A stretch of 63,853 nucleotides of DNA, the filler included, from Klebsormidium nitens (Eukaryota; Plantae; Klebsormidiophyceae): assembly GCA_000708835.1 (NCBI GenBank). It is 6 parts of 6 records of this genome, joined end to end, with 100 filler letters (N's around TTAATTAATTAA, not from the genome) between each part and the next. Parts side by side here need not be neighbours in the genome. Positions count along the whole stretch, not along the records: positions 1 to 24,394 come from DF237535.1; 5 more parts are not named here. One strand, 5' to 3'. The position numbers were made by a program, and so were the translations under genes. Of the stretch, positions 10,028 through 36,400 are shown in pieces (positions within the stretch are counted from its first letter, which is position 1; every line of letters starts with the position of its first letter). Under the pieces are notes generated by a model, which did not search any database, was not told where the DNA came from, and saw nothing but the letters and a program-made list of their open reading frames with translations.

Positions 10028-11488
10028 TTACGCCCGCTTCCGCTTCTGTCCTACTTGCTGGCTCGGAACTTCACTTTCCCAGTCGTAGCCGTCGTAGAAC
10101 ATGTGCTCGACTGTCACCTCGCGCTCCGGCACGTGGGTGAGGTGGTGACGGAGGCGCTCGATGTATGCGCGGTTGCGATTCTCCCACATGCTCTTGTCTC
10201 TGATCACCGGCACGCCTAACTTGTTGTATTGAAAACAGCTGGGAACCTTCCTTCCTCCAGCCGACGTGAAGCCGTCTGGGTTGAATCGCAGCTGGACCTG
10301 GGGCCGGTTGCCGGCGTCCTGGAACAGCTCCATGAGCCTTTTGTTCTCGCACGCGGAGTTCCGGTGCTGATCCTCGTCGTTCTCTAAGTGCACGGTATGA
10401 GTGTACATGTCGACGAAAACGTCGGGTCTCCTCGCCGAGCAACCTCCTTGGACCCTCTTGTCGAATGTTATGTCCGCGTGCTCGGGGAGAATGTCTGCCG
10501 CTTTGATAGCGTCAGCGAAGTGCTGCTCTTTGACCTTGAGATTCCGAGAGACCTTCTCGCCTGGAAAGAGATGCACGAAGCACCGGAGGCAGTGTCCTCT
10601 GTAACGCTTTCCGACGTGGGTCCCACACCCGTTGACGCACTTCGGAGACACTACATTCACCATCTCGACAGACTTGCACTTGCCGCAGTGTGTGGCCTTG
10701 TCGCCTTCCATTGCGAACGAAGGCTGCCCCCTCCCGCAGGCGCACTTCGGGGATACTACGTTCACCAAATCGACGGATTTGCACTTGCCGCAGTGTGTGG
10801 CCTTGCCTCCTTGATGTCCGAAAGAAGGTACCCCTTCCCCACAGGCGCACTTCTTGTGCTTTACATTTACCATGTCGTCGGACTTGCACTTTTTGCAATG
10901 AGTAGCTTTGCCGCCTTCGAGTCCGAATGAGGGTGCCCTCCCACAACCACACTTCATACTTCTTACATTCACCATGTGCTCGCCCTTGCACTTGCTGCAA
11001 TGCGTGGCTCTACTGCCTCGGACACCGAAGGAAGGTGCCCCCCTCCCACACGCACACTTTTGGCTCTTCACGTCTATCATGTTATCGGATCTGCACTTGC
11101 TGCAATGGGTCGCTCTGCCACCCTTGAGCCCGTACTGCGGCTGGCTCTTTCCACAGAAGCACTTTGGAGACACCACGTTCTTCATATCAACGGATCTGCA
11201 CTTGCCGCAGTGAGTAGCCTTGCCACCCTCGATACCGAATGCAGGGTACCCCTCCCCGCAGAAACATTTCCGGTGTGCCACGTCCACCAGATCATCAGAC
11301 TTGCACTTTTTGCAATGAGTAGCTTTGCCGCCTTCGACCCCGAAAGACGGCCACTTTCCACACGCACATTTCCGGTTCACCAAATCCACCATCTTCTCAG
11401 ACTTGCATTTGCTGCAATGAGTTGCTTTGCCGCCTTCTATTCCGAAGGAGGGTCGCACTATGCGACAAGGACATGTAGCCTTCGCCAT
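10028..11488 (-). CDS. EsV-1-7-type Cys-rich repeat protein (8 repeats) with C-terminal PD-(D/E)xK/Vsr-like endonuclease
   Basis: Eight ~34-35-aa units CxCG...PSFGxEGGKATHCxKCK, then RRPDVFVD...LENDEDQH...LRFNPD. Confidence 0.85.
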   Translation of the reverse strand: MAKATCPCRIVRPSFGIEGGKATHCSKCKSEKMVDLVNRKCACGKWPSFGVEGGKATHCKKCKSDDLVDVAHRKCFCGEGYPAFGIEGGKATHCGKCRSVDMKNVVSPKCFCGKSQPQYGLKGGRATHCSKCRSDNMIDVKSQKCACGRGAPSFGVRGSRATHCSKCKGEHMVNVRSMKCGCGRAPSFGLEGGKATHCKKCKSDDMVNVKHKKCACGEGVPSFGHQGGKATHCGKCKSVDLVNVVSPKCACGRGQPSFAMEGDKATHCGKCKSVEMVNVVSPKCVNGCGTHVGKRYRGHCLRCFVHLFPGEKVSRNLKVKEQHFADAIKAADILPEHADITFDKRVQGGCSARRPDVFVDMYTHTVHLENDEDQHRNSACENKRLMELFQDAGNRPQVQLRFNPDGFTSAGGRKVPSCFQYNKLGVPVIRDKSMWENRNRAYIERLRHHLTHVPEREVTVEHMFYDGYDWESEVPSQQVGQKRKRA

Positions 11489-11693
11489 CTGGGTAAACGC
11501 GTCGGGATGATCGTACTGAGTCCCGAAGGCTCCCTATATCGAATGCCTCAGGTACATTGGGGCACTTTTTGACATCCACATGAAATTCCGCAGACCCGAA
11601 ATGGTCATATATCGATCGTTATTCCCATAAGTACATCGGGATCGAACTGAGGAAATATTGGGAAGACCTTGGACCCGAGAATGGCTGTCCATC

Positions 11694-12794
11694 TTAATAT
11701 GAAGTAGGAATAAATTGCCAGCGTAGATCACGGCATATCTGTTGCCAGATCGAGTCATGCGTTCGTAACTTCTGTCTGCTCTTCAACAGGGGCAGGTACG
11801 GTAGCATCTGATCCTCCCCGAGCAACTGAAAAAACTTGAAGAGGACGTAATTGTAGCTAAGAAAGTTTGACCTCCCCTCCGGCGCGTACTTTTGAAACGG
11901 CTCTTGCACCGCCGAGAACATGACTATGATCTTCTCCTCGGTCTCCGGGCTCAATCGTGGTGGCGACACCCCTAGGGACTGGCAGATCGACACTGAATGC
12001 TCATAGAACTTGGAGAGATTCAGCTTCTTCAGGTAGCCCCGCACTCTCTGTGGGTTGATCTCGTCGACAGACGTTATGCGCGCCTTTCGGAATTCGGCCT
12101 TCACTTTGTCGATCACGTCCTGGGGGATGACCGTGGTCTCTTTGCCCAGGATTTGGTTGAGCCACTCGATGAGATGCACCGCCCTTTTGTAGCTGAAGGA
12201 GGGTGTCACGTTGCACGTGATCTCTTGTTCGTAAGTTAGGTTCTCCCTGGAAAATCCCAGGACGGTCTCGGACAAGCCGCACTCGGGGCACACCATGGAT
12301 CCCTCGTGGGGGATTGATAAGAGCGTGACCTCGCAGTCGGGGCACGTGTGTATATCTTGTTTGTACTCGCCTTTCCTTATGAGTATGTCCGTGAGGGCCG
12401 AGTGAGCTGCTGCGTATTGAGGAGACAAGGGATCGGCCGTGGCGACGACGTACTTGAGATTCAGTGTGCCGAGTCCGGAGGTACCCTTGTCCGCAGTCTG
12501 TACGGTGACAAAATCTTTGATGTTGCCGTACTTTCTCTGGGGCGGCTTCTTCGATGATTCTTCCTCTTCTTTCTTTCTCTCGTTCTCTTGGAGTTCCTTT
12601 ACTCTCTTCGTCTCCGTCTCATACTCTCGGAGCAAAGGCGCCGCGTTGAGAAGGTACTGAATCTTATCCGAAGAGAGTTCTCCAGACGCGCCTCTCTGTC
12701 CTTCCAGCTGATGTAAGCGGTTCCTGTGCATCGTCTCCAACGTTGAGGCCTGAAAGGTAGCCATGATCCGTTCGATGTTTGAAGAGTTCGACAT
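11694..12794 (-). CDS. VLTF3: Late transcription factor VLTF3-like
   Basis: Zn ribbon CPDC...VCPECG, FSYKRAVHLIEWLNQILGKE, and RSNFLSYNYVLFKFFQLLG...LLKSRQKL...D.IWQQIC..L.WQFIP. Confidence 0.93.
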   Translation of the reverse strand: MSNSSNIERIMATFQASTLETMHRNRLHQLEGQRGASGELSSDKIQYLLNAAPLLREYETETKRVKELQENERKKEEEESSKKPPQRKYGNIKDFVTVQTADKGTSGLGTLNLKYVVATADPLSPQYAAAHSALTDILIRKGEYKQDIHTCPDCEVTLLSIPHEGSMVCPECGLSETVLGFSRENLTYEQEITCNVTPSFSYKRAVHLIEWLNQILGKETTVIPQDVIDKVKAEFRKARITSVDEINPQRVRGYLKKLNLSKFYEHSVSICQSLGVSPPRLSPETEEKIIVMFSAVQEPFQKYAPEGRSNFLSYNYVLFKFFQLLGEDQMLPYLPLLKSRQKLRTHDSIWQQICRDLRWQFIPTSY

Positions 12795-12868
12795 TGCACG
12801 AGTCCCTAAATAGCGTCACACAAAATTCGTTCGAGTGCTCTTTGCTTATTTCGAGACAATGCACAGGG

Positions 12869-13645
12869 ATGAGAGAGAAGAACGTGCTCAGCATAGACAT
12901 CGGAATCCGATACCTCGCGTACTGCCTGATGGGACCAGAGACGAAGGAGGTCAAAGCGTTTGGAATTCTGGACATAGGGGAGGAGGGCGTCACCCACAAC
13001 AGGATCGATTCGGGTACCGTCGCGAGGCTGAAGAGAGCGTTCGATGGACTGCTCGAGAAAATCGAAGAACCGAGCATAGTGATTGTAGAGAATCAACCAC
13101 CTATAGCGAAGCTCATGCGAGTGATCCAAGGCATGACCGAGATGTACTTTGTCTGCAGAGAGGGCGTCGATAGGGTCGTCGTGTTCGACGGACGAAAGAA
13201 GATAGTAGGGGCCAGAACGAAGGGGCTCTCCGGCAGAGCGAACTATGCACAGCGTAAGAAGGCAGCCGTGGAAGAGTGTGCAGGATTCCTTCGGTCTACC
13301 GCACAGAGCGAGGAGACGCGTCTGATATTCAAAGGTTCCAAGAAAAAGGACGACCTGGCAGACGCTCTGATACAGGCACTCAGATTTATCGACGAGGCAC
13401 GGAAAAAAAATATCTGTTGTCCAGTATATACGACAGGAAGCTATGGCCAGGACCAAGGGAGCGGGTGCCAAGACCTCGTCCAAGAGCAAGCCCAGGAAGA
13501 CCGCAACCAAGAGCCGGACCAAGAGAAAGTCGTCGTGGGGAAAGAAGGGCTCGAGGAGCGTGACCGTCTTCACTCCTTTGAAGATGAGCGGGAAATCCGT
13601 GGGGGGTTGCGAATTTCCTCAGGGGCCGGCACTGACCCTGGATGA
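12869..13645 (+). CDS. RuvC/poxvirus A22-like Holliday junction resolvase
   Basis: VLSIDIGIRYLAYC, IVIVENQPP and KKDDLADALIQAL supply the acidic catalytic motifs; C-terminal extension overlaps the next ORF. Confidence 0.85.
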   Translation: MREKNVLSIDIGIRYLAYCLMGPETKEVKAFGILDIGEEGVTHNRIDSGTVARLKRAFDGLLEKIEEPSIVIVENQPPIAKLMRVIQGMTEMYFVCREGVDRVVVFDGRKKIVGARTKGLSGRANYAQRKKAAVEECAGFLRSTAQSEETRLIFKGSKKKDDLADALIQALRFIDEARKKNICCPVYTTGSYGQDQGSGCQDLVQEQAQEDRNQEPDQEKVVVGKEGLEERDRLHSFEDEREIRGGLRISSGAGTDPG

Positions 13646-14132
13646 TGCGATGGCTCGTGAGTACACAAAGTATGCTCGCCAGATGTATGTGGTGATGGCG
13701 AAGTTCCGCAATCTCGATAGGTGTCTCATCTTGAAGCATGGGCCGACTTATACGGGCGCTAATCTGAACCGTTCGGAGGCCGAAGCTCTAGCGGACCTGC
13801 GTCTCAAAGCCAAAGATATCCAGCACCAGTACCAGCAGTCTTGCGCGAGAAAGAACTTCCAGTTCAGATGGAATACAAAGACCGACTTCAACCGTCAGGC
13901 CCTGGTAGACAAGGATAAAAATGAATTCGCACAGCTCGAGGCCTCGTACGGTGTCGGAGCGATGGACAACAAACTGGCAGGGGTGGGTAGTAAGTTCGAC
14001 CCAAGTGGCTGGGCCTGTGCTGCTTTCTCTAGAGCGTCGCCTTTTGCTGACATGGCCTACGATGAGGGGTTCGACGGAGACTACGGTGACGACTACGGAG
14101 CAGATGAGGGCTTCTACGGTGACGTCTACTGA
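13443..14132 (+). CDS. Basic viral protein with histone H3-like N-terminal tail and acidic Tyr-rich C-terminus
   Basis: MARTKGAGAKTSSKSKPRKTATKSRTKRKSS; GTATATAC 11 nt upstream of the ATG. Confidence 0.7.
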   Translation: MARTKGAGAKTSSKSKPRKTATKSRTKRKSSWGKKGSRSVTVFTPLKMSGKSVGGCEFPQGPALTLDDAMAREYTKYARQMYVVMAKFRNLDRCLILKHGPTYTGANLNRSEAEALADLRLKAKDIQHQYQQSCARKNFQFRWNTKTDFNRQALVDKDKNEFAQLEASYGVGAMDNKLAGVGSKFDPSGWACAAFSRASPFADMAYDEGFDGDYGDDYGADEGFYGDVY

Positions 14133-14600
14133 TCAGTCTGTGGCGTAGGGCTTGTTGTCGATGTGAAGCCATTCGTTAGGGGGGAGCGCAGACTCCTTCA
14201 ACCTCCTCATCCTTTTGCGGAAGCGGTGCATCAAGAGGGCCAACATAGCCGAGAGGAATAACAATGGTATGGTGTTCTCCACGGTCATCAGCTCCCACGT
14301 GGTACGTAGCCGGGCGAGCACTCCCTTTGAGAGCTGCCCTGTCAATCGGTGGATGCAAGACAAGGTGGATCCGAGTCCGCTGACGCCTGCCGACACGATC
14401 GTTCGCTCCTGAGCATCGACGGGCGCCTCCGAGAGTACGACGTGTCCTGTGGCCTTCGCGCTAGGGGTCACGGAGAACGGATCGTCGGAAACGAGCGTCT
14501 TGGTCATTCCGATCTCGTCTGGTCGCGTAGCTGTCAACAGGTTCGAAAATGGGATCCCCTTTGCCGAAAGCTTGGAGGCGCGCTTGAGTGTGTCGCCCAT
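14133..14600 (-). CDS. Viral hypothetical protein with C-terminal transmembrane helix
   Basis: ATG 14600 inside the longer listed ORF; IPLLFLSAMLALLM followed by a basic stretch; stop abuts the neighbour's stop. Confidence 0.55.
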   Translation of the reverse strand: MGDTLKRASKLSAKGIPFSNLLTATRPDEIGMTKTLVSDDPFSVTPSAKATGHVVLSEAPVDAQERTIVSAGVSGLGSTLSCIHRLTGQLSKGVLARLRTTWELMTVENTIPLLFLSAMLALLMHRFRKRMRRLKESALPPNEWLHIDNKPYATD

Positions 14601-14693
14601 CTTCTCTGCAGTAAGCTGCAGATTATTCACGATGACCTTTTTCCCAGCGTCCGTCCAGGATGCAGAGAAAAAGTTCACGCGCCATCTTACAAC

Positions 14694-15230
14694 ATGTCGG
14701 CCGACTTTCAGAGGTTGCTCAAGGAGCGAGAAGAGCAGCTCGGTGGACGAGAAGCGTCCCCCAACACGGCTCCGCCCCCACAGAATCCAGTCAATCCTAG
14801 CTTCGATCCTCGCGATAGTCTTCAGACACGTTCCAACGGCGCCGCTCCTGCAGAAGGGGGTACTCCTCTGAGCATGCTCTATGACCAGAAAGAGCCACCT
14901 GTTGAGATGATGCAAGAAGAAGGCAACCCAGAAGTACAGAGAGAAGTGTACTACCAGAGACCCATATACGAACCCCAACTCGCCCCTCTGGAGCCACCGC
15001 CCAGGGACGCTTCGGACGACGCCAACAGGCGTCTCGGCATGACAGTGTTCTTAATCTGCATGACACTCTTTGCACCCCCTTTGCAGGCGAAACTAGCCGA
15101 ATTTCTCCCGCGGGTCCTGACTTTCGACGAGAGTTGGCAGCAAGTGATCGTACGAGCCCTCATGACGTCCTTTGCATTCTATGCGTTCCGGCGATTCTTG
15201 ACCAGTCCGAAAACTCAGCTGATGTATTGA
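14694..15230 (+). CDS. Viral membrane protein, Pro-rich N-half with two C-terminal hydrophobic helices
   Basis: ATG 14694 (MSADFQRLL), divergent from the 14600 gene; LGMTVFLICMTLF and VIVRALMTSFAFYAF. Confidence 0.6.
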   Translation: MSADFQRLLKEREEQLGGREASPNTAPPPQNPVNPSFDPRDSLQTRSNGAAPAEGGTPLSMLYDQKEPPVEMMQEEGNPEVQREVYYQRPIYEPQLAPLEPPPRDASDDANRRLGMTVFLICMTLFAPPLQAKLAEFLPRVLTFDESWQQVIVRALMTSFAFYAFRRFLTSPKTQLMY

Positions 15231-15821
15231 TCAAGGGATCCAGACGGGCCGCCTCATGATGACCGGCGCTCCTTTGATCGGTGTGTGCCTGATCGTGCTG
15301 CCGCAATAACGCCCCGGGTTCGCCGGGCTGAAAGCTTGATAGTTATACAGTTTGGCTTCTAGGGCTAGTTCTAACAAGCGCTTAAAGTTCTTCTTAAACT
15401 CTGCATCGTGGTCCCAACCATTGCTCGCCATATGTGCCAGTTCATGCGTGAGAACAAAGGTGACAGTGTCTTCGTGCTGTTCTCTCTTATCTTCGGGGAT
15501 GCACAAGGTCATCTCCGCTCCCTTATCTCTTGTGTAAGCTGCATAACCGACGGAAGGGGGTATCGCTCGTATTCGGGTGTTGTGCCTTTTGTAACGTGCG
15601 ATCAATCGTTTGACGACCGGATCCTCTCGGATGCTAGGATCGGCATTGTTTGCTAGCCAGCGGATGAACCGACGGAGTCTCCTGTTTGCAAACACGATCA
15701 CGCTGTGCTCCTCGTTGATCTTTGAGAACCGTCTATCAGCAGTCGTATTCCTGATCCGGAGCATGAGCAGTATTACTAAGAGAGACAGGAATAATTTCTC
15801 CATCGCCCCATCAAGGTCCAT
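15231..15821 (-). CDS. NCLDV WLM-like zinc metallopeptidase
   Basis: N-terminal TM, AAYTRDKGAEMTLCI, HELAH zinc motif, H.EF..NF..LL, and YCG. Confidence 0.85.
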   Translation of the reverse strand: MDLDGAMEKLFLSLLVILLMLRIRNTTADRRFSKINEEHSVIVFANRRLRRFIRWLANNADPSIREDPVVKRLIARYKRHNTRIRAIPPSVGYAAYTRDKGAEMTLCIPEDKREQHEDTVTFVLTHELAHMASNGWDHDAEFKKNFKRLLELALEAKLYNYQAFSPANPGRYCGSTIRHTPIKGAPVIMRRPVWIP

Positions 15822-15906
15822 CTTCTACACTGCAATCATCGTACAAAAAAAAGCACGTCGCGAGGCGGTCCAATTTATTCTTTGGCGATTGTAGTCAGGA
15901 GGAGCT

Positions 15907-17679
15907 ATGGCTGCCGCCATCAACACAACTCTCCAGAATACTGCTTAGCCCCTGACTCCGATACCTTTGGGTCCGATAGTCGAGAATACGACCCAAGCGC
16001 CACAAATAGCGACCGCAACGCCCAGTCCCGTGATAATCACGCAGATCCCTACGCCGAGGGTGACCGAAACCACCCCGCTTCCGACGCAGCCTCTTCCTGG
16101 TGCTACCACTCCACTACCGACGCAGTCTCTTCCTGGTGTTACCACTCCACTACCGACGCAACCTCTTCCAAGTGCGGCCACACCGCTGCCGACGCAACCC
16201 GTTCCCGGTGCGACAACTCCACTGCCCACGCAGCGCCCTCCGATCACTCCTGCTCCCACGCAACCTCTTCCCGGTGCAACGACTCCGCTTCCGATACAAC
16301 GCCCCCTCGTCACCCCCGCTCCGACGCAGCAACCTCTCATAACTCAAGCTCCAGCTGCTACGCCGACACTCTTGCCGAACGCTCCCACTAGGCCTCCTCT
16401 TGCGACGGATCCGAGCCCCATAACGCTTCCACCCGCACCCGGCTTTACTCCCAGTCCATCGATCAATCCGACGAACATCAGCACGCTCTCCGGCAACAGC
16501 AGCTCTACGCACTCGTCGGCACTTATTCTCGCACTATGTGGTACTTTTGGTGGCTTTGTTCTCCTGCTGTTACAGCTCTTCTTCGCGAGACGCTGTTGGT
16601 TGCGGCGTGTCAGGAGGCGAGGTCCGCCCGAACTTCCAATGACCGAACTGACATTTGAGACCTTGACTAAGACTCGCCTGAGTGACGAACCTCAGGTCCG
16701 GAGATTTGAAAAGACTCGTTTCAACTACGAGGAGCTGGCGAGAGCGACCGACGACTTTTCGGACGAGCGGCTCCTCGGGCTGGGTGGATTCGGCAAGGTC
16801 TACAAAGGAGAACTGCCGGATGGGCGAACCGTGGCCATAAAGTGGTCCACGGTCGAAGGCCCTGCCGCCGTCGGCGAGCGCGAGTTTCAATCGGAGTTGG
16901 AGGTCATCTCGCGGGTGCATCACAAACATCTCGTCTCCTTTCTGGGTTACGCCCTCGAAGGGAACAAACGGCTGTTGGTTTTGCAATACATGAGCAACGG
17001 TACGCTTCAATCACTCATTCAGTCACCCAGATCCCTCACCTGGCCGGCGAGGCTCAAGGCAGCAATAGGTGCCGCGAAAGGACTCACATATCTACATGAG
17101 GATTGTCAGCCCAGCATCATTCATCGAGACATTAAATCTAGCAACATCCTGATGGACTCGAACATGGATGCACGCGTGGCCGATTTCGGCATCTCGAAGC
17201 TGAAGGAGGAGTCGACACTCGATACCCATATCAGCACGAGGGTCATGGGAACTTTCGGATACCTCGATCTAGCCTACGCAAGTACCGGTAGGTTGACGAA
17301 GGAATCTGACGTCTACGGTTTCGGGGTGATGTTGTTGGAACTCGTTTCGGGTCGCAAGCCGGTGGACATGACCAGAGATCCAGGAGAAGAGAGCTTAGTG
17401 GAGTGGGCGCGTCCTATAATCGAAGACAGACTATACTTCCGGCTCATAGACCCTTTCTTACGTGACGAGGGTTACGAACGAGCAGAGATAGTACGCATGA
17501 TCAAGACCGCTGGCATGTGCATCAACACTGTCGCCCACATGAGGCCCGGCATGTCTCAGGTAGTGCGTTTCTTGGAAGGAAATGGCCGCCCCGAAAGTCC
17601 CAGACGTAGGTTTGGGAGCACAGACTTTGAACAGACTAACACGGTCGTAGAGCCCGAAGAATTCAGCTCGCCGAGATGA
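15907..17679 (+). pseudogene. Intronless PERK-like receptor kinase (Pro/Thr-rich ectodomain, TM, Ser/Thr kinase) with in-frame TAG at codon 14
   Basis: ATG 15907 reads MAAAINTTLQNTA*PLTP in frame with the listed ORF. TM ALILALCGTFGGFVLLLL; RFNYEEL..AT..FS, GLGGFGKVYKG, HRDIKSSNIL, DFG, HISTRVMGTFGYL. Confidence 0.85.
16069..16340 (+). repeat. Coding tandem repeat, ~36 nt / 12 aa (TTPLPTQPLPGA), about 8 units
   Basis: Visible in both the DNA and the translated ectodomain. Confidence 0.9.
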
Positions 17680-17719
17680 GTAACCATCCGAGATCGATCG
17701 CATAGGCTCAGAGACCCTG

Positions 17720-17811
17720 AAACCCTAAATTTCGAGGCCTCTTATTTCGAACTACGAACCCTAAAACCAACCACGTGATTGAGAAACGACTTTGGACAGT
17801 CAAAACCCTAA
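17720..17811 (+). promoter_or_regulatory. Telo-box cluster and G-box upstream of the MYB-like gene
   Basis: AAACCCTAA at 17720-17728 and 17803-17811, AACCCTAA at 17757-17764, CACGTG at 17772-17777. Confidence 0.4.
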
Positions 17812-18071
17812 AAAACGACTGTAGTGTGGTACAGTTTCGGACGGGGCGTAAAAGTGACGCGCAGTATACCGAGTGTTGCCGCGACAAGCGAACGACGACA
17901 TTTTCGGATGGCATTAGTCGAGACTGCCACTCATCATCCGAAAGTACCATCCGAAAACGACACTTACAGGAAAGATGGTCTCGTCCAAAATGCAGCCACT
18001 GGTAGCATACATCTTTCCTCCTTGGAGACAACGTGCAAAGCAAAGTATCGCCCACTTTGCTGAATTCAGCC

Positions 18072-18833
18072 ATGCGCTGGTCGAAGCAAGAAGACCTCTC
18101 TCTGTTCAGTATGGGTACCTCCTTGTTGAAAATTGATGGAGGTATCGACTGGAAGAAAGTGTCGAGGAACATCCGCCACTCTCTGCCAGCAAAAAAACGA
18201 GTCACGAGCAATGCTTGCAAAGCCAGATGGAGTGTCCTCTTCCTGGAGAAGAGGCCGTGGACCTTTGAAGATGATGTGATTCTCGCTCAGTTTTTCAGAC
18301 ACGTCGGGCACCATTGGGATTCCTGCGCGCGAGGTTTAGGTCGGACCACCAGTGGTGTGCTGGAGAGGTGGGACTGGCTCACACACAATGAGATGGTGGA
18401 CTTGAGAGGTGAGTAGACCAGTCTATTTCTGTCGTCGTTGACCTACTTCTGAAGTAGCTCATTGTAACATCGCAACACAGTATACCTGGGTTGGGATGTC
18501 GCACTTACCCAGATTCCTCGCCCTAATGCAGGCTATCACAAGCGTGAGGAGCTATTCAACGAAGATTTCATCGCGCACAAGAAGAGGAAGAGAGAACTGC
18601 ACGCTTCACCGAGCTCTTCGGCTCGGTCAGAGCTCAGCTTCGATGAGGATGTAGACAGCGATCTCTGGAAGTTGCACGAATTTGTCGACACCTCGAGCAT
18701 CAGCCTAAAGGATTGGGAAGTGGAGGAAGAGATTCTCTCTCAAGAAATACTGAGTGTGCCTAGAACAAAGTCAGAAGTCGAGCTACTCTGTGATGAGTCT
18801 TGGAATGACATTGAGGATTTTTTCTATGACTAA
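18072..18833 (+). CDS. Two-repeat MYB/SANT protein with acidic C-terminus; join(18072..18408,18481..18833), 229 aa
   Basis: RWSKQED...IDWKKVS...CKARW and PWTFEDDVIL...HWDSCARGLGRT...ERW. Splicing out 18409-18480 joins these in frame to VYLGWD...ESWNDIEDFFYD*. Confidence 0.75.
18409..18480 (+). other. 72-nt GT-AG spliceosomal intron in the MYB-like gene
   Basis: AG|GTGAGT donor and aacacag| acceptor; removal restores the frame. Confidence 0.75.
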
Positions 18834-18871
18834 GAGTGCGGATTTCCTGAGGAATTAAGTTTGTTTTCAGT

Positions 18872-20416
18872 ATGCCAATGGCCACCGAGGTCCAGACGAT
18901 CATCGAAGCAGCTCCTCTGCTCGCTTTAGATAGCACATTGCCATGTCAGGAGAAAGCCTCTCACTGTGACAGGGTGGCTGAGGCCAACTTGAGCCTGTGT
19001 TTGAAACGGATTCCCGTCACGATGCGCGTGGATGGTGTCCCGGGTGGACTCCGTAGGGACACCCGTATGCACGATTGGAGAGTGTATATGACGCTGGATA
19101 ACGAAGAGGATTCTCTCGAAGAAAGATTGCAGAAAATAGATGAACTGTTGCTCATCGAGGATAGAAGAGAGGCCAGGTCCTTCCTGTACAATCAGCTAGC
19201 ATGTCTATATCGCAAGCTTGCGAGCGTGCCCACACACCCTGGTGACGCATGTCCCTTTATGAGCCTGCCGGAAGAGTTATGCTTAAAGATAGCATCCTAT
19301 CTCACGGATTCGAAAGACCGGGCGAATTTTGCCTTATGTAACACCGTCACGAGGGATGCAGAGAGGCATTCCAAAAGGTGCATTCGAATCTCAGCGAATC
19401 CCGACAAGAAGAAACTCAGGCGACTACTCGTAGCTAGCCAGAGTGCAGAGAGGCTCGTGTCGGATGGCCCAATAAAATCATCTCTGTTGCCCACAATCCT
19501 CAAGGATGGTACGGACATGCTGACGGCTTTTAGTGAATGCCCGATCGAGGTCTCGAGCTGGAAACACGTCCGGATGCTCTTCCGACGAGCCGTATCGGTG
19601 TCTCTGATCGTCGACGCGTCTTGTATGACAGAGGGGCATCTGTCGAGATACATAAAGTCCGACCGGTTCTCGACCATCAAGAGTCTACGGCTTCGACAGG
19701 TCGGTCCCTCGGAAGAAATCATCTCTTCAAAAGTCTTTTCTCATTTGTTGGATTCTCTCCCCGCATTGGAGGATCTTCGCGTGTTAGACATGCGGCTCAC
19801 TCGGCGTCATTTGCTAGCTCTCTCCAAGTGTCCAGCACTGACCACTTTAACGGTGGTACATTCGACTACTTCCGAGGGTGAGGCGGAGCCTCCCGAGAGA
19901 CTTCCGGATTTTGCACTGCAGGAATTGGAGATCTGCAATAGTCGGGAAAGAGCGGTACTGCCCACAACCCTACAGGAGATTGTTTCTGCTTCGAGAAAGA
20001 CGCTCCAGCGACTCATCTTCGACCAATCCCACTTTTACGACACCAGCACCCGGCACACGATGGTCGCACATGCACTGGTAGACCTGGAAATGAATCGATG
20101 GAGCGATCTGTGGTACCTGCGTTTCGACGAGAGACTCTCGAAGTTGAAGCACCTCGTCATCAGGAGCGACTGTCAAATATCCATGGAGTTACCACACGCA
20201 TTCGACGAGCTAGAGACTCTGGTCATTGGTAGCAACACCTCGGCCAGGCTAATCGACCTGTGCGGTTGCGTCGCATATATATCTATGTGTAGGATCTCCA
20301 AATTCCCTAAACTCAGAGTGATAGAGACGCGCTTGGACATGCAGACTGCATCATCCCACGCACTCTCTCAGTTCGCCAGGCAGCTGGGTAAAGACATCGA
20401 GCTGAGGATCTTCTAG
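18872..20416 (+). CDS. F-box plus LRR-like protein, intronless
   Basis: FMSLPEELCLKIASYL..SKDRANFALC F-box, followed by LxxLxL repeats (LPALEDLRV, CPALTTLTV, LSKLKHLVI, FPKLRVIE). Confidence 0.75.
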   Translation: MPMATEVQTIIEAAPLLALDSTLPCQEKASHCDRVAEANLSLCLKRIPVTMRVDGVPGGLRRDTRMHDWRVYMTLDNEEDSLEERLQKIDELLLIEDRREARSFLYNQLACLYRKLASVPTHPGDACPFMSLPEELCLKIASYLTDSKDRANFALCNTVTRDAERHSKRCIRISANPDKKKLRRLLVASQSAERLVSDGPIKSSLLPTILKDGTDMLTAFSECPIEVSSWKHVRMLFRRAVSVSLIVDASCMTEGHLSRYIKSDRFSTIKSLRLRQVGPSEEIISSKVFSHLLDSLPALEDLRVLDMRLTRRHLLALSKCPALTTLTVVHSTTSEGEAEPPERLPDFALQELEICNSRERAVLPTTLQEIVSASRKTLQRLIFDQSHFYDTSTRHTMVAHALVDLEMNRWSDLWYLRFDERLSKLKHLVIRSDCQISMELPHAFDELETLVIGSNTSARLIDLCGCVAYISMCRISKFPKLRVIETRLDMQTASSHALSQFARQLGKDIELRIF

Positions 20417-20808
20417 ATCGCTTGTGTCTCCAAGAATCGATTCCAAGCATCGGCGCTCCTCTCGCCCTGGTATACGCTGGTCTTTCCCGTGGCCAAGTCC
20501 CGGAGAACGAAACTCGGAAATCCTCGCAGGCCGAGAGAATTCGATTCGCTGCGGTCTATGCTCGCATCTACCTTGCGCAATGCGACGTCGCCGCGATAGG
20601 ACTGCTCGAAGCGAGACCATTCGGGAAAGGCCCTCTTGCAGAAGCCACAAGTCGGAAGATAGAAGTAGGTGAAGACGTATCTCGGAGCTTCGCCGAAAGC
20701 CTCATATCTCTCAGAGGTGTGTGGAGTGGAAAACCAACCGTTTGTGTAAGCATATAGGCCTATAGCCGCACCACCCAACAAAAAGTACACGTGACCGAGT
20801 CCGTCCAT
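20413..20808 (-). CDS. Thioredoxin-like protein with N-terminal membrane anchor
   Basis: YFYLPTCGFCKRAFPEW, VDAS, GFPSF and YQGERSA; GTATAC 2 nt upstream of the ATG. Confidence 0.87.
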   Translation of the reverse strand: MDGLGHVYFLLGGAAIGLYAYTNGWFSTPHTSERYEAFGEAPRYVFTYFYLPTCGFCKRAFPEWSRFEQSYRGDVALRKVDASIDRSESNSLGLRGFPSFVLRDLATGKTSVYQGERSADAWNRFLETQAI

Positions 20809-21960
20809 TTGTATACACTTGTTACAGAAATTTAATCAGCTCATTCAGGTCAGCCAGCCACAGCGTCTTCTCATCGTTGCTACGCAGGTCAGCGATCTCT
20901 CTCTGCACGTCTTCCAAGGATGCCTCTACTTCCCTCAGCCTCTCGTTCGTCAGCATGGTCAGCCGCATGCCCATCAGGTCCTTGGCCTGATCGGCAGACG
21001 GCGTCGGTTCCACGGTCTCCACAATGTCTCGGAGCACGTCGCTCTGTTCCCGCCTCGCTATGATCAACCTCCCGTGCACCACCGCTCTCACGAACACACG
21101 ACGCTGCTGCAGGTTCTTCAGTCGCTCCTCGGCCTCAGCGAGGAGGTGCTCCTTGCGCCTCTTGTAGAGCTCTAGTCGAGCGCCGTAGTACTCCTCCAAC
21201 ATGTCGTCGACCGTCTCGTACTTGCGGATGATTCCCCTAGTATCAAACGCGCATATGTTCTTGTCGCTGAAAGATCGAGAGAGGTCCAAGAGCTTGTGCG
21301 GGTCTTCGGATCCCAGCAGAGCCTCCAGGTCTGCCTCGCTCTCAAACGTCAGTTCAAAGTGCACTGTGTCCTCCGTGGAGAGGTTGAAGACGTCCCTCAA
21401 GTTCTTCACCTTGCCAGACTCCAGAAACTCCTTGTAATCGTCCGTCCAATATCCCACAGGCAGTTCGTCGACCACCAGGACTCGGGGTGTCTTTCGCCGG
21501 AAGGTGCCTTTCACGGCGTACATTCCTGGGCCCTTCTCTTCCACCGAGCCCTTGAACGAGTTCCAATACGGGGGAAGAGAGGAGGGGGGTCCCCCTCTCA
21601 GCATGGCCTTGAGGTTTGCGACGACCGCCGCGGGCTCGCGAGGCAGGATCCTGGTGGAGAAGCCATAGCCAACTCCGTTGCAGCCCGAGACCAGGGCCAT
21701 CGGAATGACCGGAGCGTAGTACTCGACCTCCACCTTCTCTCCCTCCTCTTCGAGCCTCCTCAAGAGCGACGCGTCCCTCGCGTCGAAGACGTGCTTCATG
21801 ATCGGCGTCAGCCTGGTGTAGATGTACCTGGCGCTCGCCGCATCCTGCCCGCCTTGCAGGCGCGTCCCGAACTGCCCCATCGGTTCGAGGATGTTGAGGT
21901 TGGTGGATCCCACGAAATCTTGCGCCATCTTCACGATCGCGCTCGCCAACGAGGTCTCGC

Positions 21961-22542
21961 CTACGAAAGATGTTATTGCGTTTGGAGGCGTGAATTTCTT
22001 TCTATATGCACCGTAGAGCCACTACGATGATAAGTGGGGAGCTCCTACACGATTGTGGTCTCAACCAGGAAGAACGATTTGCGGCAATTCGTGAATATTT
22101 CGATGGTATCTTTCGCAACAGAGTGGGTGCCGACTGGCAGCTGTTGAGATCTATCGATACTTTATACGAAGAGGAGCAGGACGATGAGTGCAGAAAAGCC
22201 TCTTTAGATAAGAAATTCGAGCTCGTAAGAGGCAAGCGAGACGACTTCTTCAGAACCTTTCTTAAATATCTAGAATACGACAAGATAATGATGAAGAAAA
22301 CACAGCAATCTTTGGAGGACGTGAAAGAATTTCTTAACCGTAAAACTATCGAAACGAACGAATAATGCAGTAGCTTTACTGCGACCTCTGTCAGAGAAAA
22401 CATGGAAGCCACGCGGCACAACCTCATAGAGACGATACGAGAACTGGATGCTGAGATACTGAGGATGCTCGAGGTGTGGGGCTTAGACGCTGTGAAATTG
22501 CACGACAAACCCCACGGTCCTTTGTCGGATCGACAATATCAC
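21961..22542 (-). other. 582-nt GT-AG intron in top2 (phase 1, in YRHG|E) containing an antisense ORF
   Basis: CACG|GTGATA donor and ctttcgtag|GC acceptor; the unspliced frame hits a stop at 22424. Confidence 0.9.
22006..22365 (+). CDS. Intron-nested antisense ORF, 119 aa, helical and charged
   Basis: Lies wholly inside the top2 intron; ATG 22006 (or 22027) to TAA; AT-richer than the flanking exons. Confidence 0.65.
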   Translation: MHRRATTMISGELLHDCGLNQEERFAAIREYFDGIFRNRVGADWQLLRSIDTLYEEEQDDECRKASLDKKFELVRGKRDDFFRTFLKYLEYDKIMMKKTQQSLEDVKEFLNRKTIETNE

Positions 22543-23142
22543 CGTGCCGGTAGCTCGTCTTCAGAGCGACCTGCGCCGCCAGTTGCGCCACCTTGATCTC
22601 TTTCGTAAAACTCTGTTCGCCTGCCTGGAGGAGCGTGAAGAGGATCTTGCGCTGGGACGGCTTCAGACCGTCGAACACGCTGGGGATGTGGCGCTTGATC
22701 GCGGCCAGCCCGAAGAGAGCCAGAGGCCCGTAGACAAAGTCTGTCAGCTTCACATCCGGGCCGGCGGGTTCGGAGGGAGCGTTGCAGGTGGCGTCGACCA
22801 TCCACTGCTGCCGCTCCGCCGTCATCTTGTTGGAGAACGCCAGCCTCATGCTGCTCTGAGCCTCAGGGTCTGCCACGAAACGGCTGGTCTTCATGGTCTG
22901 GAAGATGACCTTCGCCTCGCTGGATGTGTGCGTGCCGAGACCCTTGTAATACTTCACAGTCCAACCCGATCGCCCTTCTCGTGCCCTCCATGTTTCGAAT
23001 TGCTCCTCCGTGTAGAACGAGATCGCCTCGCGTACCCGGCCTCTCGGGAACGCCTTGATCACGGGAGTGTCCAGAGTCCAGACGAGTCCCAGCGTCAGGA
23101 GCTCAGGCCAGAACGTGTTGATGAAGTGGATGATGAGCCCCC

Positions 23143-23588
23143 CTGCGAGTGGGCGCGAGCTTCTGCACAATCTTGAAATTCGGGCGATCCAGACAGAATA
23201 AAAGCAACGTACACTTTAGAACTCGAGGGATGCCTCACTACGAGACTTGCTATAAATGCAGACTCAAATATAATAGGAAAACCGGGAAATGGCCTGAGGA
23301 TGATCGTTTCAAGGCCATATACAGAAAAGAGATCAGGGACGGTGACGAGAATGCTGCCGAGCTCCGAGCGCGCCTTGCCAAGTTCTGGTATCTGAGCGGT
23401 GGTGGTATGACGAAGTACAAGGCGTGCAAACGGTGTCATAAGCATGACCCCAACATCGCTGAGATCATGGACCACGTTCCCGACGGCTGGATGGTGCCGA
23501 GTAAGGGAGAAATGATCTTGAAGGATTTAGAAAAGCCGTGTGTCGTTATGTGAGGCTGTGCATCCAGAGCAAAGTGGAAGTAACTCAC
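23143..23588 (-). other. 446-nt GT-AG intron in top2 (phase 1, after DGIHI) containing an antisense ORF
   Basis: ATAA|GTGAGT donor and actcgcag|GG acceptor regenerate HI-R-GLII. Confidence 0.93.
23230..23553 (+). CDS. Intron-nested antisense ORF, 107 aa, two CxxC motifs (putative Zn-binding)
   Basis: MPHYETCYKCRLKY...KYKACKRCHKHD; fills most of the intron; upstream AATAAAA. Confidence 0.7.
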   Translation: MPHYETCYKCRLKYNRKTGKWPEDDRFKAIYRKEIRDGDENAAELRARLAKFWYLSGGGMTKYKACKRCHKHDPNIAEIMDHVPDGWMVPSKGEMILKDLEKPCVVM

Positions 23589-23766
23589 TTATGTGAATCC
23601 CGTCCACGTCGGCGTCCGATGCGATCAGCACCCTCCCGTATCTGAGCTGATTCAGGTCCGTGTACTTGAAGAAGTGCTTCAGGCCGAGGATCTGCTTCAG
23701 GTGTCCGATCTCCTTGTTGTCAGCTAGCTTCTGTGCGGACGCGTCCGTCACGTTCAGGAGCTTGCC

Positions 23767-23852
23767 CTGCAGAGAGACGTTTTACCAGCCATCAGAGCTG
23801 CCCAATCGCCTCGCGGCATGCGCGCATGGAGGTGACACCCGAAGAGACTCAC
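23767..23852 (-). other. 86-nt GT-AG intron in top2 (phase 0, PLR|GK) with no nested ORF
   Basis: CGG|GTGAGT donor and ctctctgcag|GGC acceptor. Confidence 0.93.
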
Positions 23853-24185
23853 CCGTAGCGGAAAGGACCCCTAGTACTGTCTTTCTTTGAGGTCCAGCCC
23901 CCCTACGCCGGCGGTCACGAAGGTCTTGGCGGAGTCTCCCTCGGTCAGGACGAGTGTGCAGCGCCCTGAGTCCTTGGTCCCCGCCCTCGGGGCATCGTCC
24001 AGCTTGGGAATCTTCAACCTCTGGCACTTGGACCCGTTGGTGGCGACGAGAAGGCGCTGGTCCTTGGCTTTGGACGCGGCGAGCGCAATCTCCTTGAGCT
24101 TCAGCCGGTCGATTGCCTTTCGGACGTCCTTTTCCGGCATCTCGCAGCGGCTCCCAAACTTGTACACCGGCAGGTTGCATGTATC

Positions 24186-24394
24186 CTGCAGAAATAAAAT
24201 CTCTATTTGGAAATATACTGGAAAATGGATCCCATGTACATTCTGCTCATCCTCTCGTGGATCGGGGTGGCGTTGCTCATCATTGTGACGATTCGAGTCT
24301 ATGAATCTTCATATCGAACTCGTCCCAGTATATTGTCCGCGCGCGTATGGCGTATCTGCTATCTGCTTTGCTCGATATCGTATACTGAGTCGCG
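24186..24394 (-). other. 3' part of a further top2 intron (donor lost in the gap) containing an antisense ORF
   Basis: attttatttctgcag|GAT acceptor gives DTCNLPVYKFGSRCEM, the segment that follows QTK in topo II. Confidence 0.8.
24225..24394 (+). CDS. Intron-nested antisense ORF with N-terminal TM helix, truncated by the gap
   Basis: MDPMYILLILSWIGVALLIIVTIRVYES...; ATATAC 6 nt upstream of the ATG. Confidence 0.55.
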
Positions 24395-24671
24395 NNNNNN
24401 NNNNNNNNNNNNNNNNNNNNNNNNNNNNNNNNNNNNNNTTAATTAATTAANNNNNNNNNNNNNNNNNNNNNNNNNNNNNNNNNNNNNNNNNNNNGTGAGA
24501 CACATTCAGGCCACTTCGGACACTCCGCTTGTGCTGGCATGGAGGCGCTTTCATGACTCGTTCAGCGTTCAACCTGGTGGATGAAAGGACGACTCGGAGT
24601 CACGAAAAGCACAGCCCGTGCTTTTAGAATCCAGCCCCTTCTTTCAAATCGCAACCCATGCTCACGCGCAG

Positions 24672-25855
24672 GTGTACCTTTCGGACGCGTCCGGCGCGTC
24701 GCCGCTCGTGTACGCCGCCTCCTGGTGGTCCGAATCGGACGTCGGTACGTACCTCTCGGACGTGCACGCGCCCATCTGGACCAATCTGATGGCCGTCAAG
24801 GCGCCGCTCCACCGCAGCCTTTCGTGCATCTACTTTGGCAACTCCCCCGCGCTTGAAGCGTGAGTCGTTTCGTACCGACCACTTTTCAACCCTCTGCCCG
24901 TGGCAGGCTATGAGGAAAAAGCGGATACAGCTGTTTGCGTGACCCTCACGAGGGATTCAAAACCGCTTTACGTGATCTTCGACCGTCTGATCGCTCTACT
25001 TTGAGAAGTATTGGCATTTTGGGGAGATTCCTCCGCCTTCTATGCTCAACACCAGGCACGCCAGTTTGAGGGGGAGGCCAGGCCTACCAACAGCTCTTTT
25101 TCGTGGAGACCCCACAAGAAGGGGTCTGCTCTCTCTTTGATTTTTTTCCCACTTTTTAAACTGTCTTTGGCGGACGCGCACGCCTTGACCGCTGTGACAA
25201 GTCCCCGACCGCTCTCGCTTATGAGACAGCGAGACGGCGTTTACGAGACTGCTGTTGGGCAGGTGCAAGGTTGCCGAGCTTATCGTCGGTCTGATCATTC
25301 AGTCGTGATCTGATCAGACACTCGACCTCGGTCTATTGACGATACGAATTTTCTCCCTCGTTTGATCTTCTGGTCACCTGCTTGATCTTGCGTTGAGAAT
25401 CCATTGGCTGTAATTTCGAGGCGCTTCAAACAGCCTGACGTCCTGCCTTAAAAGAGCTCGTAGTACTTCCATCCCCAATCAAAAGTCCCTCTTTCAAGCG
25501 TGCCGAAGCGTAACGGAATGCTGCAACTTGAAGTTCCAAACGCTATAAGGACTCAGCCGTTATTGCTTAATCATATAATGATTTGAGCTAGAAGGTAGTC
25601 GGCGGGACCCACATGGCTGCAATTGACAATACGGACCTGTCTACCAAGGGGACGGGGTACGAATGTTGCTCACTCACTCTCTATCCTCGGTTTCGCAGGC
25701 GGTTCGGGATGCCAGGTCCTTTTTGGGCACGTCACTACCTTTTCTACGTCAACGGGCGGCCACTGACGCTGATCTACGAAGCCTTTTCCAACGCGTTGGA
25801 GACATATCTGGGGCCGAACGACCGTTGGACGGCGCCGTTCGGCCGGCTGGCTTGA
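24672..25855 (+). CDS. Host Ycf21/DUF98 chorismate pyruvate-lyase-like protein, 3' exons 24672..24859 and 25699..25855
   Basis: VYL...LVYAASWW...PIW..L...L.R....IYFGNSPALEA|RFG..GPFWARHYLFY..G.PLTLIYEAFS..L..YLG matches cyanobacterial Ycf21; GT-AG junctions restore the frame. Confidence 0.85.
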
Positions 25856-33026: not shown

Positions 33027-33444
33027 TTAGGTATAGTGGACAGCCTGGGCTTATACTGTGGACGTGGCTGTGGACGTCATGTGGACGGTCCAACCGGGGG
33101 TACTGACAAGTACCGCGCGCGCGACACTTCAAGAATTTCAAGACAGAAAACGGTTGAATACATATCGGCCGCACTTTGACTAAGCCTAGTCCAACTTCTG
33201 TACTAGAGCAGTCTAGGTTCACAGTGTTCACGCGAGCCGGCCTGCCTACCTATGTACCTAGACTCACGAGACTGGGAACGACAGTCCGTCAGGGCCTCGA
33301 GGCCTCAAGTTTGCCTCAAGTTTGTCACTTTATCACTGTCTAANNNNNNNNNNNNNNNNNNNNNNNNNNNNNNNNNNNNNNNNNNNNTTAATTAATTAAN
33401 NNNNNNNNNNNNNNNNNNNNNNNNNNNNNNNNNNNNNNNNNNNC

Positions 33445-36400
33445 ACGCTGCTTCCCCGGCATGTACTCTATATCGAAGTCATACTCTTGTAACTTCAAAG
33501 ACCAGCGCATCAACCTTGTATTTAGGCCCTGACTATTCATCAACCACTTCAAACTGGCGTGATCTGTCACCAAACTGAACTTCGTTCCAAAAAGATACGG
33601 CCTGAAATGCTTCACCCCCCAGACTACTGCCAAACACTCCCCCTCAGTTGTTGGGTAGTTCCTTTCAGCCGCAGTCGATGACTTGCTTGCATAAGCGACC
33701 ACGTGCTCCTGGCCGTCTGCCCCTAACTGAGCCAAAATCGCCCCTATTGCCGTCCCTGAATAATCCGTTTTAAGTATGAACCGGTGAGAAAAGTCTAGAC
33801 GAACAAGGATTGGCGGTGAGATCAGCCGTTCCTTGAGCTCTTCGAACGCCCTTTGTTGCTCTAATCCCCAGCTATACAGCACTTCCTTCCTTAGTAACCC
33901 CGTTAATGGCCCAGCAAGCTTTGAAAACGACCGCACATATCTTCTGTAGTATCCGCAAAGCCCCAAAAATCCTCTCAGTTCTGATACGTTTCGAGGAACC
34001 GGGTAATGTTGAACACAAGCTATCTTTGCTGGATCAGATTTCGACCCCTCCCTATTAATCACATGCCCAAGATACAATATCTCTTGCATCGCGAAGCTAC
34101 ACTTTTTTGGACTGATCTTCAGGTTCGCCATCCTCAAAGCCTCAAATACTTTCTCCAAATGCCCCAAATGCGTACTGAAATCATCACTATAAACCAGGAT
34201 ATCATCCAAGTATACCGAGCAGAAATTCCCAATGAATGGCCGCAGCACAACGTCCATCAGCCTCTGAAAGGTGCATGGAGCGTTGCATAGCCCAAACGGC
34301 ATCACCCTGAACTGAAATAACCCCAGCGGCGTCGTAAAAGCCGTCTTCACTTTGTCCCCTGGTGCTGGCCAATGCTATCTGNNNNNNNNNNNNNNNNNNN
34401 NTGCTGCTTCCCCGGCCTGTACTCTATATCGAAGTCATACTCTTGTAACTTCAAAGACCAGCGCATCAACCTTGTATTTAGGTCCTGACTATTCATCAAC
34501 CACTTCAAACTGGCGTGATCTGTCACCAAACTGAACTTCGTTCCAAAAAGATACGGCCTGAAATGCTTCACCTCCCAGACTACTGCCAAACACTCTCCCT
34601 CAGTTGTTGAGTAGTTCTTTTCAGCCGCAGTCAATGACTTGCTTGCATAGGCTACCACGTGCTCCTGCCCATCAGCCCCTAGCTGAGCTAGAATCGCCCC
34701 TATTGCCGTTCCTGAATAATCCGTTTTGAGTATGAACCGTTGAGAAAAGTCTGGACGAACAAGGATTGGCGGTGAAATTAGCCGTTCCTTGAGCTCCTCG
34801 AACGCCCTTTGATGCTTTAATCCCCCGGCAGCTATACAGCACGTTTTTCCTTGGTAACCCCGTTAATGGCCCAGCAAGCTTTGAAAACTACCGCACATAT
34901 CTCCTGTAGTATCCGCAAAGCCCCAAAAATCCTCTCAGTTCTGATACGTTTCGAGGAATCGGGTAATGTTGAACACAAGCTATCTTTGCTGGATCAGGTC
35001 TCGACCCTCACTATTAATCACATGCCCAAGATACAATAGCTCTTGCATCGCGAAGCTACACTTCTTTGAACTGATCTTCAGGTTTGCCATCCTCAAAGCC
35101 TCAAATACTTTCTCCAAATGCCCCAAATGCGCACTGAAATCATCACTTTAAACGAGGATATCATCCAAGTATACCGAGCAGAAATTCCCAATGAATGGCC
35201 GCAGCACAACGTCCATCAGCCTCTGAAAGGTGCATGGAGCGTTGCATAGCCCAAACGGCATCACCCTGAACTGAAATAACCCCAGTGGCGTCGTAAAAGC
35301 CGTCTTCACTTTGTCCCCTGGTGCTAATGCTATCTGCCAGTAACCCCACTTCAAATCTATCAGCGAATACCAGTGTGCCTTCCCAATCTCGTCCAGCAAG
35401 TCGTCTATCATTGGTAAAGGATATGAGTCCTTTACCGTAGCCTCATTCACCTTTCTCAAGTCTATGCAAAACCTGTCGCCCCCATCTTTCTTCTTTGTAA
35501 TCACTGGACATGAAACCCACGGACTTTCTGATGGCTCTATGATTCCGTCCTCTAGCATCTGCTTGACCTCCCTTATGATAACCTCTCGTTCTTTTTGAGA
35601 CAACCTATACGCCCTCTGTTTAATTGGAGGATGATTTTCTGTGTAGATCCTATGCCAAACCAAATCAGTGTATCCCAGCCTCTCATTTTCCCACAAGAAA
35701 ACGTCTCTGTATGTTGCCAGTAATTGGGTGATTAGCTGCTTCTGAATTCCGGTTAGTCTCTTACCCTTTTGAATAGCTCCCAAGCCCGTGAGAATACTCT
35801 CCACTTCCGAGCTCGTACCACCCATCGTATTGCGCCAGTCTACCATTGCGTCCAATTCTGATTCACTTACCAGGCTTTGAATCTCATTGTACAAAGCCAG
35901 ATCACTGCTCAGCCCTAGCTGCTCATCTCGAAATACTTCCACTACTTCGTCCACGGCCTTTTCTTCAAAAGGCTCCTCAAAAAGTACCTCTAATCCTAGT
36001 CCATCTAGTTTGCCTGCATCCTCCCAGTCTTCAAAGCTAAATGCCTCTGAAGCCTTCCAAAATTCCTCTACCTCAGGCAGCACGGCCTCTTCTATTTCCG
36101 ACCATTCCTCACTCCAGTCCGACTCCTCATCGAACTCCATTTCCTCCTACGGGTCATTGTTAAGGCTGTCTGCACCTCCTGAATCCACTTCAGTTTCCAA
36201 ATCAGACTCTTCTTCCCTCTGTTTATCTTGCAATTTCACAAGGGAACTGTGCCCTAGGAGCCGGCCTCCTTTCAAACCTTGCCCCCTCTTTTTGTTCTTT
36301 TCTTTCGTTGATCGTATCCAATGGTTCTATTTCCAGATAAGCTGCCATCCCAGTACTTGCTTCAAATGCTAGTGGAAGGGTTCCTTGATGCTGATGATCA

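Follow-up and report, generated by a model that had tools for sequence, protein, structure and literature searches.

Spliceosomal introns that carry protein genes have been described in mirusviruses: the available parts of that report list more than 2,000 nested genes, with 334 endonucleases (in introns called shintrons) and 271 MING-1 proteins, which have no nuclease site (PMC12768974). The same source presents nucleocytoviruses as generally free of spliceosomal introns, with decaying endogenous elements, pandoraviruses and some chloroviruses as exceptions (PMC12768974). In the passages available, the MobA elements of phages invariably target one place, the Toprim domain of the phage topoisomerase (10.1101/2022.08.31.505936). 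Here we describe a nucleocytovirus topoisomerase II gene (top2), endogenous in the streptophyte alga Klebsormidium nitens (assembly GCA_000708835.1), whose long introns hold open reading frames (ORFs) on the opposite strand. It lies in a stretch of 63,853 nucleotides, filler included, which we call the window and along which all positions are counted. An earlier note, made from this sequence alone, had taken the gene for a giant-virus topoisomerase II split by cargo-carrying spliceosomal introns, and the identity of the gene is upheld.

On balance, we lean toward the following reading: three complete GT-AG insertions at conserved motifs of the viral top2 were likely removed by the host spliceosome, and the two longer ones are likely introns with gene cargo, gained in the virus lineage and probably spread by homing-type recombination. 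We hold it as a whole with moderate confidence, because no nuclease was identified. Gene-carrying, possibly mobile introns likely also occur in Nucleocytoviricota, beyond mirusviruses. The origin and spread of new spliceosomal introns are still poorly understood; if the reading is true, topoisomerase II of a second virus realm joins the described cases, and the strategy would have arisen repeatedly among giant viruses that depend on the host nucleus.

Exons, introns and splice junctions of the viral top2

The surviving part of top2 and the ORFs nested in it are arranged as follows (a slash marks a junction):

20822..21960, minus strand: last top2 exon, DNA_topoisoIV domain (Pfam PF00521, E 7e-64; tblastn to homologs)
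21961..22542, minus strand: intron A, 582 nt, phase 1, GTGATA..CGTAG, within the YRH-G/E motif
22006..22365, plus strand: ORF A, 119 amino acids, predicted all-helical, inside intron A, without homolog
22543..23142, minus strand: top2 exon, TOPRIM_C and start of the topoisoIV domain (domain match, homologs)
23143..23588, minus strand: intron B, 446 nt, phase 1, GTGAGT..CGCAG, immediately following the DxDGxHI motif of Toprim
23230..23553, plus strand: ORF B, 107 amino acids, intact, CxxC pairs C7/C10 and C66/C69, fills 73% of intron B
23589..23766, minus strand: top2 exon, Toprim (homolog comparison)
23767..23852, minus strand: intron C, 86 nt, phase 0, GTGAGT..TGCAG, without cargo, within the PLR/GK motif
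23853..24185, minus strand: first surviving top2 exon, transducer and start of Toprim, with an in-frame TAG at 23871-23873
24186..24283, minus strand: 3' end of probable intron D (pyrimidine tract and CAG), at the position of QTK/E in homologs
24225..24284, plus strand: beginning of a third ORF on the opposite strand, with 20 unique, hydrophobic codons before a repeat cuts it

Introns A, B and C have GT-AG ends, and their removal restores a collinear conserved protein, which makes them putative U2-type spliceosomal introns. GT-AG ends appear in only one of the 19 registers tried for each of them (-9 to +9), the one given above; a random segment of the same length has such ends by chance in 0.35-0.39% of cases. 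Over the seven residues around each junction, PLR/GK, DGIHI-R/GL and YRH-G/E are collinear with 106, 105 and 106, respectively, of the 106 homologs of at least 1000 amino acids (13 shorter ones of the 119 were left out). A public K. nitens protein model, P0003, is identical to the last top2 exon and has the same junctions A and B and the same acceptor of C; for intron C it takes an upstream donor and thereby drops a conserved stretch. GC content is 0.45, 0.50 and 0.605 in introns A, B and C, compared with 0.57-0.62 in the exons, which sum to 2250 nt. The acceptor of probable intron D ends at 24186, and homologs run on upstream through QTK/E; its donor, the upstream exons and the ATPase-domain exons were not found within the window. 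The three junctions that the earlier note had placed in conserved motifs therefore stand, as do introns A, B and C, whereas its fourth intron is reduced to an acceptor, and its single 750-codon frame is interrupted by the TAG at codon 105 (23871-23873).

Insertion at conserved motifs is typical of group I introns and inteins, and this speaks for a self-splicing origin. Against it, an Rfam search returned no group I or II match at E up to 5 (its one match, at 4.5, was irrelevant), and the folding z-scores are -0.32 for intron B and -1.38 for intron A; neither a covariance-model match nor a stable core structure was found. An intein is an in-frame open insertion; introns A-C are not inteins, because B and C (446 and 86 nt) break the frame and intron A has stops in all three sense frames. 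The signals are thus spliceosomal, as the earlier note had them. As to an assembly artifact, one 7463-bp contig of data set X1 covers 17000-24313 with zero differences, and a contig of X3 covers 22226-24186, also without differences; both come from the same sample, and X1 may be the source of the assembly. The in-frame TAG is unchanged in these contigs. Self-splicing introns, inteins and assembly errors are thus largely refuted, and we consider an explanation of this kind highly improbable.

Nor do introns A, B and C have any sequence in common with the rest of the window. They gain no extra contig depth in X1 at 85% likeness, compared with a depth of about 3000 on a nearby repeat; because of this, and because the window holds no second copy, they are not members of a high-copy host repeat family. 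No copies in the window and, among those listed, no terminal inverted repeats at the intron ends were found that would mark introners or transposons, a test that speaks to young families, older diverged ones being beyond its reach.

In a FastTree phylogeny of 54 of the 120 listed proteins, P0003 falls outside a 22-row clade of plants, fungi and other named eukaryotes and groups with three environmental proteins of 1054-1082 amino acids, on a long branch and with unsure placement. RNA runs X5 and X6 gave only short pieces, which match the host top2 and a repeat and are neutral on expression of the viral gene. The segment 23922-23961 matches the host top2, and the adjacent host intron is present in DNA contigs and missing from the RNA contigs of X5 and X6.

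Insertion sites and nested genes

The earlier note had also pointed to insertion at conserved motifs, and this goes beyond chance: ten-residue windows at sites C, B and A belong to the most conserved 1.1%, 1.5% and 8.0% of windows, and three random sites would be equally conserved with a joint p of 2e-4, or 6e-3 if drawn from the 97 Gly-adjacent sites only. All of the viral top2 loci fetched (80/80) are continuous at A, B and C; by E-value they are the first 80 of at least 560, and this order favors uninterrupted genes and hence gives no frequency. Closer to hand, loose ends of X3 contigs at 23106 and 23140 belong to a second viral-type top2, which matches 23106-23140 and, translated by eye, reads straight through site B (D-x-D-G-Y-H-I-L-G-L-I-I-H-F); this relative rests on 30 letters from single contigs of the same DNA sample. 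X1 has a synonymous variant of the 23106 end. Taken together, the short matches at 23106-23140 and 21857-21902 to further contigs point to one or more viral-type top2 genes in the sample besides the gene with introns A-C, intron-less at site B. As regards the presence/absence comparison suggested in the earlier note, these 30 letters show related viral top2 genes differing in intron B. A scan of viral contigs with the top2 exons revealed no close relative, and contig scans revealed no second intron-bearing locus; a degenerate pattern (donor after DxDGxHI) had one match, which is not top2. Separately, in the viral top2 of locus L023 (2943-3400) about 70 codons up to the PLRGK motif are present twice in frame, either a true duplication or an assembly artifact.

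ORF B is the best characterized cargo. It begins 87 nt inside the acceptor end of intron B, on the opposite strand, and is longer than expected from 3000 shuffles (p = 0.005 for one strand, 0.028 for either strand). Its codon score (0.23) lies within the range of 16 neighboring viral ORFs (0.14-0.37) and is reached by fewer than 1 in 1000 shuffles; its GC content (0.50) is likewise inside the range of neighboring viral genes (0.48-0.58). A profile search against 1.84 billion representatives gave nine matches, seven of them true homologs. Homologs of ORF B have the identifiers P0001, P0002 and P0123-P0128, and one homolog is 61% identical over the full length. P0129 and P0130 were dropped as unrelated repeat proteins. 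In the eight-row alignment, C66 and C69 are present in 8/8 rows and C7 and C10 in 7/8, and P22, Y31, W53, M80, P84 and G86 are also kept.

The predicted model of ORF B has a mean predicted local distance difference test score (pLDDT) of 82.6. Among 500 fold matches in BFVD, the top eight are uncharacterized proteins of cedratvirus, mimivirus, pithovirus and medusavirus, with E from 3.5e-4 to 3.5e-2 (two under 1e-3) and template-modeling (TM) scores of 0.38-0.58; the next row has an E of 0.3. An Atlas search with ORF B gave matches of only 0.75. Searches of PDB by sequence, Foldseek and VIA-align (best Z 3.1) gave no match, which proves neither a different nor a new fold. Judged by its sequence and model, ORF B is a real gene, a member of a small unnamed family with predicted fold relatives in nucleocytoviruses, and its CxxC pairs suggest zinc binding. 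Scans for the genomic context of its homologs covered viral contigs (queries A1, P0127, P0124, P0123 and A3), one metagenome and two sets of genome contigs, and returned no usable locus; one viral-contig scan counted a single match but yielded no locus, and two candidates, L001 (a phage) and L002 (a bacterium), were rejected as chance matches, since the A2 profile finds nothing there.

ORF A begins 45 nt inside the acceptor end of intron A, also on the opposite strand. Its length is unlikely by chance (p = 0.002 for one strand and 0.010 for either strand, 3000 shuffles), and its codon score is viral-like (0.25, inside the same viral range and reached by fewer than 1 in 1000 shuffles). Its frame stays open for 76 more codons past the TAA, to 22596 and across the donor, and a premature stop may thus have shortened ORF A from a longer gene. 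It has no usable Atlas match, and its low-confidence helical model has no BFVD match; of the nested proteins the earlier note wished to see compared by fold, only ORF B thus finds nucleocytovirus counterparts. The sense strand of intron A also has an ORF of 141 codons, which mirrors the frame of ORF A and was regarded as its shadow.

At 24284 the depth of X1 contigs climbs from 15 to about 3000. A host repeat begins there, which leaves the third nested ORF only 20 codons of unique sequence and prevents closure of intron D. Three nested opposite-strand ORFs had been proposed; A and B do lie in introns, whereas the third soon runs into the repeat, and cargo in the sense of a virus-type gene with homologs applies to ORF B and not to ORF A.

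These properties of the cargo bear on one alternative, in which small viral accessory genes recombined into top2 without targeting and were kept where flanking GT and AG allowed host splicing, as a one-off event and not as mobile elements. The cargo genes are unrelated to each other and show no signs of a nuclease, the fold relatives of ORF B occur in several nucleocytoviruses (with at least two copies in medusavirus J1 and pithovirus LCPAC304), and the third ORF begins like a membrane-anchored protein, all as expected of such insertions. The strong bias to conserved motifs is not predicted by it, nor is the presence within a single gene of three long insertions, each antisense and with a start 39-87 nt from the acceptor, when the flanking core genes have none. 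We regard untargeted insertion as unlikely, though a serious contender.

Decay of the element, origin of the introns and genomic setting

The viral element is decayed, and the top2 copy is a pseudogene: in-frame stops break top2 as well as the gene for the proline-rich kinase (15946), a further ORF (at 7515) and, probably, ORF A (22363). The earlier note had missed this, as well as the repeat that makes up most of the third ORF. The kinase ORF (15907-17679, plus strand) is the 3' part of a longer frame for a proline-rich, membrane-spanning receptor-like kinase of plant type, carried by the virus, with an in-frame TAG at 15946-15948. The ORF at 7161-7600 (minus strand) has its in-frame stop at 7515-7517, a further sign of decay.

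An alternative is a host-derived origin, in which recombination at conserved motifs transferred the intron positions from the host top2, or the introns were gained after integration, and the cargo came later. The stops at 23871, 15946, 7515 and 22363 favor this account, as do the short, GC-rich intron C, the short candidate intron with the same GTGAGT donor in the neighboring myb gene, and the fact that virus and host DNA are most alike at conserved motifs. It is opposed by the virus-like fold and codon use of the cargo and by the low copy number of the introns. Moreover, the sole host top2 intron visible (near 23922) falls where the viral gene has none, and intron gain after loss of function gives no reason to favor conserved motifs. 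We find a host origin improbable. Because of the viral-type cargo and the conserved-site bias, the long introns were very probably in the virus before integration.

Several points weigh against virus-borne, homing-type introns. There is a single, pseudogenized copy, the splicing of which is predicted from its sequence, and intron gain in decaying endogenous viruses, which would also fit a host origin, is reported in the passages available (PMC12768974). The three introns share no sequence with each other, and site D is not unusually conserved (top 19% only). ORF A has no homolog (0 among 9 candidates) and may itself be broken. No His, Asp or Glu is invariant in the eight-row ORF B family, and ORF B has no nuclease match in Pfam, NCBIfam, PHROGs or PDB; by these features it does not look like a known homing endonuclease, and it could be a divergent nuclease. 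The context scans place no ORF B homolog inside an intron, and its fold relatives, for example those of mimivirus and pithovirus, may stand alone as ordinary genes. Finally, the neighboring myb gene (18072-18833, plus strand) has a candidate 72-nt GT-AG intron (18409-18480, GTGAGT donor), removal of which lengthens its frame from 114 to 229 codons. The claim that neighboring genes lack introns accordingly holds for VLTF3, A22, DUF5764 and DUF5759, which are contiguous ORFs, but probably not for myb.

Even so, homing-type spread appears to be the best account of the site bias, with cargo in which no nuclease is identified. Under this account, the active virus most likely used the host nucleus and spliceosome, as pandoraviruses, chloroviruses and punuivirus are reported to do, and the introns would have been removed there, while the antisense cargo would have been transcribed separately from a start inside the intron near the acceptor. 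ORF B, predicted to bind zinc, might recognize or open the intron-less site or maintain the intron; any cutting activity would be either novel or supplied by another gene. Intron C would be a member that is cargo-less or has lost its cargo. Splicing would render insertion into an essential motif harmless, at no cost to the top2 protein, and conservation of the motif would offer a target common to related viruses. A bolder version, which we find doubtful, is that these are spliceosomal homing introns of Nucleocytoviricota and that ORF B founds a family of small zinc-binding proteins, different from known homing endonucleases, that recognize or cut target sites and bring spliceosomal introns into conserved motifs of the replication genes of giant viruses. 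The locus offers two things for direct tests in a cultured alga: the small, well-folded cargo protein ORF B and a target site that lacks the intron. The locus also cautions that not every intron in an endogenous giant virus need be post-integration erosion.

The remainder of the viral stretch and its right end are as follows:

4169..20808: rest of the endogenous nucleocytovirus stretch, with DUF5764, DUF5759, expansin, EsV-1-7, VLTF3, A22 resolvase, kinase, myb, F-box/LRR and thioredoxin
24284..24394, no strand assigned: high-copy host repeat, end of the viral stretch (depth about 3000 versus 15; contigs break at 24284-24313; assembly gap after it)

The region from about 4 to 24 kb is gene-dense and contains the nucleocytovirus markers VLTF3 (E 5e-49), A22 resolvase, EsV-1-7 repeats, DUF5764 and DUF5759, together with plant-type expansin, kinase, myb and F-box genes. 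It is flanked by a Ty3-type retroelement and host-like exons. Markers of nucleocytoplasmic large DNA viruses (NCLDVs), host-like flanks and a top2 outside the cellular clade together identify it as an endogenous element of Nucleocytoviricota. The exons directly past the gap, at the right edge of the viral stretch, are host-like and encode a chorismate lyase (Rv2949c-like; 24660-25855, plus strand). A Ty3/gypsy retrotransposon with gag, protease, reverse transcriptase and RNase H lies at 33388-38330 (minus strand), and a fragment at about 1500-2150 was judged by eye to be integrase/chromodomain-like. A GTATAC or TATATA element stands shortly 5' of several viral start codons (7709, 9917, 13425 and 20811); by eye, similar TATAC-like elements precede the nested ORFs, and this may be a viral promoter motif. 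The A22 resolvase ORF (12869-13645, plus strand) shares some 200 nt with the gene that follows, beyond a run of A near 13400, a possible frameshift.

Comparison with described intron systems

The viral insert as such is already known in Klebsormidium: NCLDV-like contigs with an expansin beside VLTF3 have been described and classed as phycodnavirus-like (PMC5294986). The window has the same arrangement, with a virus-borne expansin at 8876-9910 (minus strand) near VLTF3. The word "intron" occurs twice in the main text of that paper and, among the passages available, neither occurrence concerns top2 (PMC5294986). In the literature searched, with supplements and subscription papers outside the search, the mirusvirus paper alone reports gene-carrying spliceosomal introns, and none were reported in a nucleocytovirus or in top2.

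Introns of punuivirus, pandoraviruses and chloroviruses are, like ours, GT-AG introns in nucleocytovirus genes, and they are processed in the host nucleus, as ours would have been; in the parts available they differ in being mostly short, with a mean of 176 bp in punuivirus (10.64898/2026.10.09.758095; PMC5995976). The main text of the punuivirus paper has no occurrence of "nested," "homing," "intron-encoded" or "topoisomerase" (10.64898/2026.10.09.758095). The phage T4 MobA/gene 60 cassette offers a parallel in the target: it, too, brings a gene into a viral type II topoisomerase at the metal-binding region of Toprim and is neutralized by processing. As described in the passages available, however, MobA is a shown HNH endonuclease, and rescue is by gene splitting and ribosome bypass, not by splicing (10.1101/2022.08.31.505936).

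The mirusvirus introns are closest in kind, and the precedent of nuclease-bearing spliceosomal introns that the earlier note had pointed to does exist (PMC12768974). Like shintrons, introns A and B have GT-AG ends and no group I/II structure, contain a protein gene and sit in a core gene of a large DNA virus. Unlike shintrons, as the available text portrays them, they belong to Nucleocytoviricota, a different phylum and realm, interrupt a replication enzyme where shintrons mainly interrupt virion morphogenesis genes, carry cargo with no HNH, GIY-YIG, VSR or PD-(D/E)XK signature, and are represented by one decayed endogenous copy (PMC12768974). MING-1 introns of the mirusvirus terminase resemble intron B in that they encode a small protein lacking a nuclease active site and interrupt an essential gene where it is conserved. 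In the descriptions available, MING-1 is without homologs beyond Mirusviricota and keeps the same site from order to order, whereas ORF B has predicted nucleocytovirus fold relatives, and its host gene is a top2 in a VLTF3-bearing stretch, not a mirusvirus terminase (PMC12768974). By analogy, the locus may work like a MING-1 or shintron intron.

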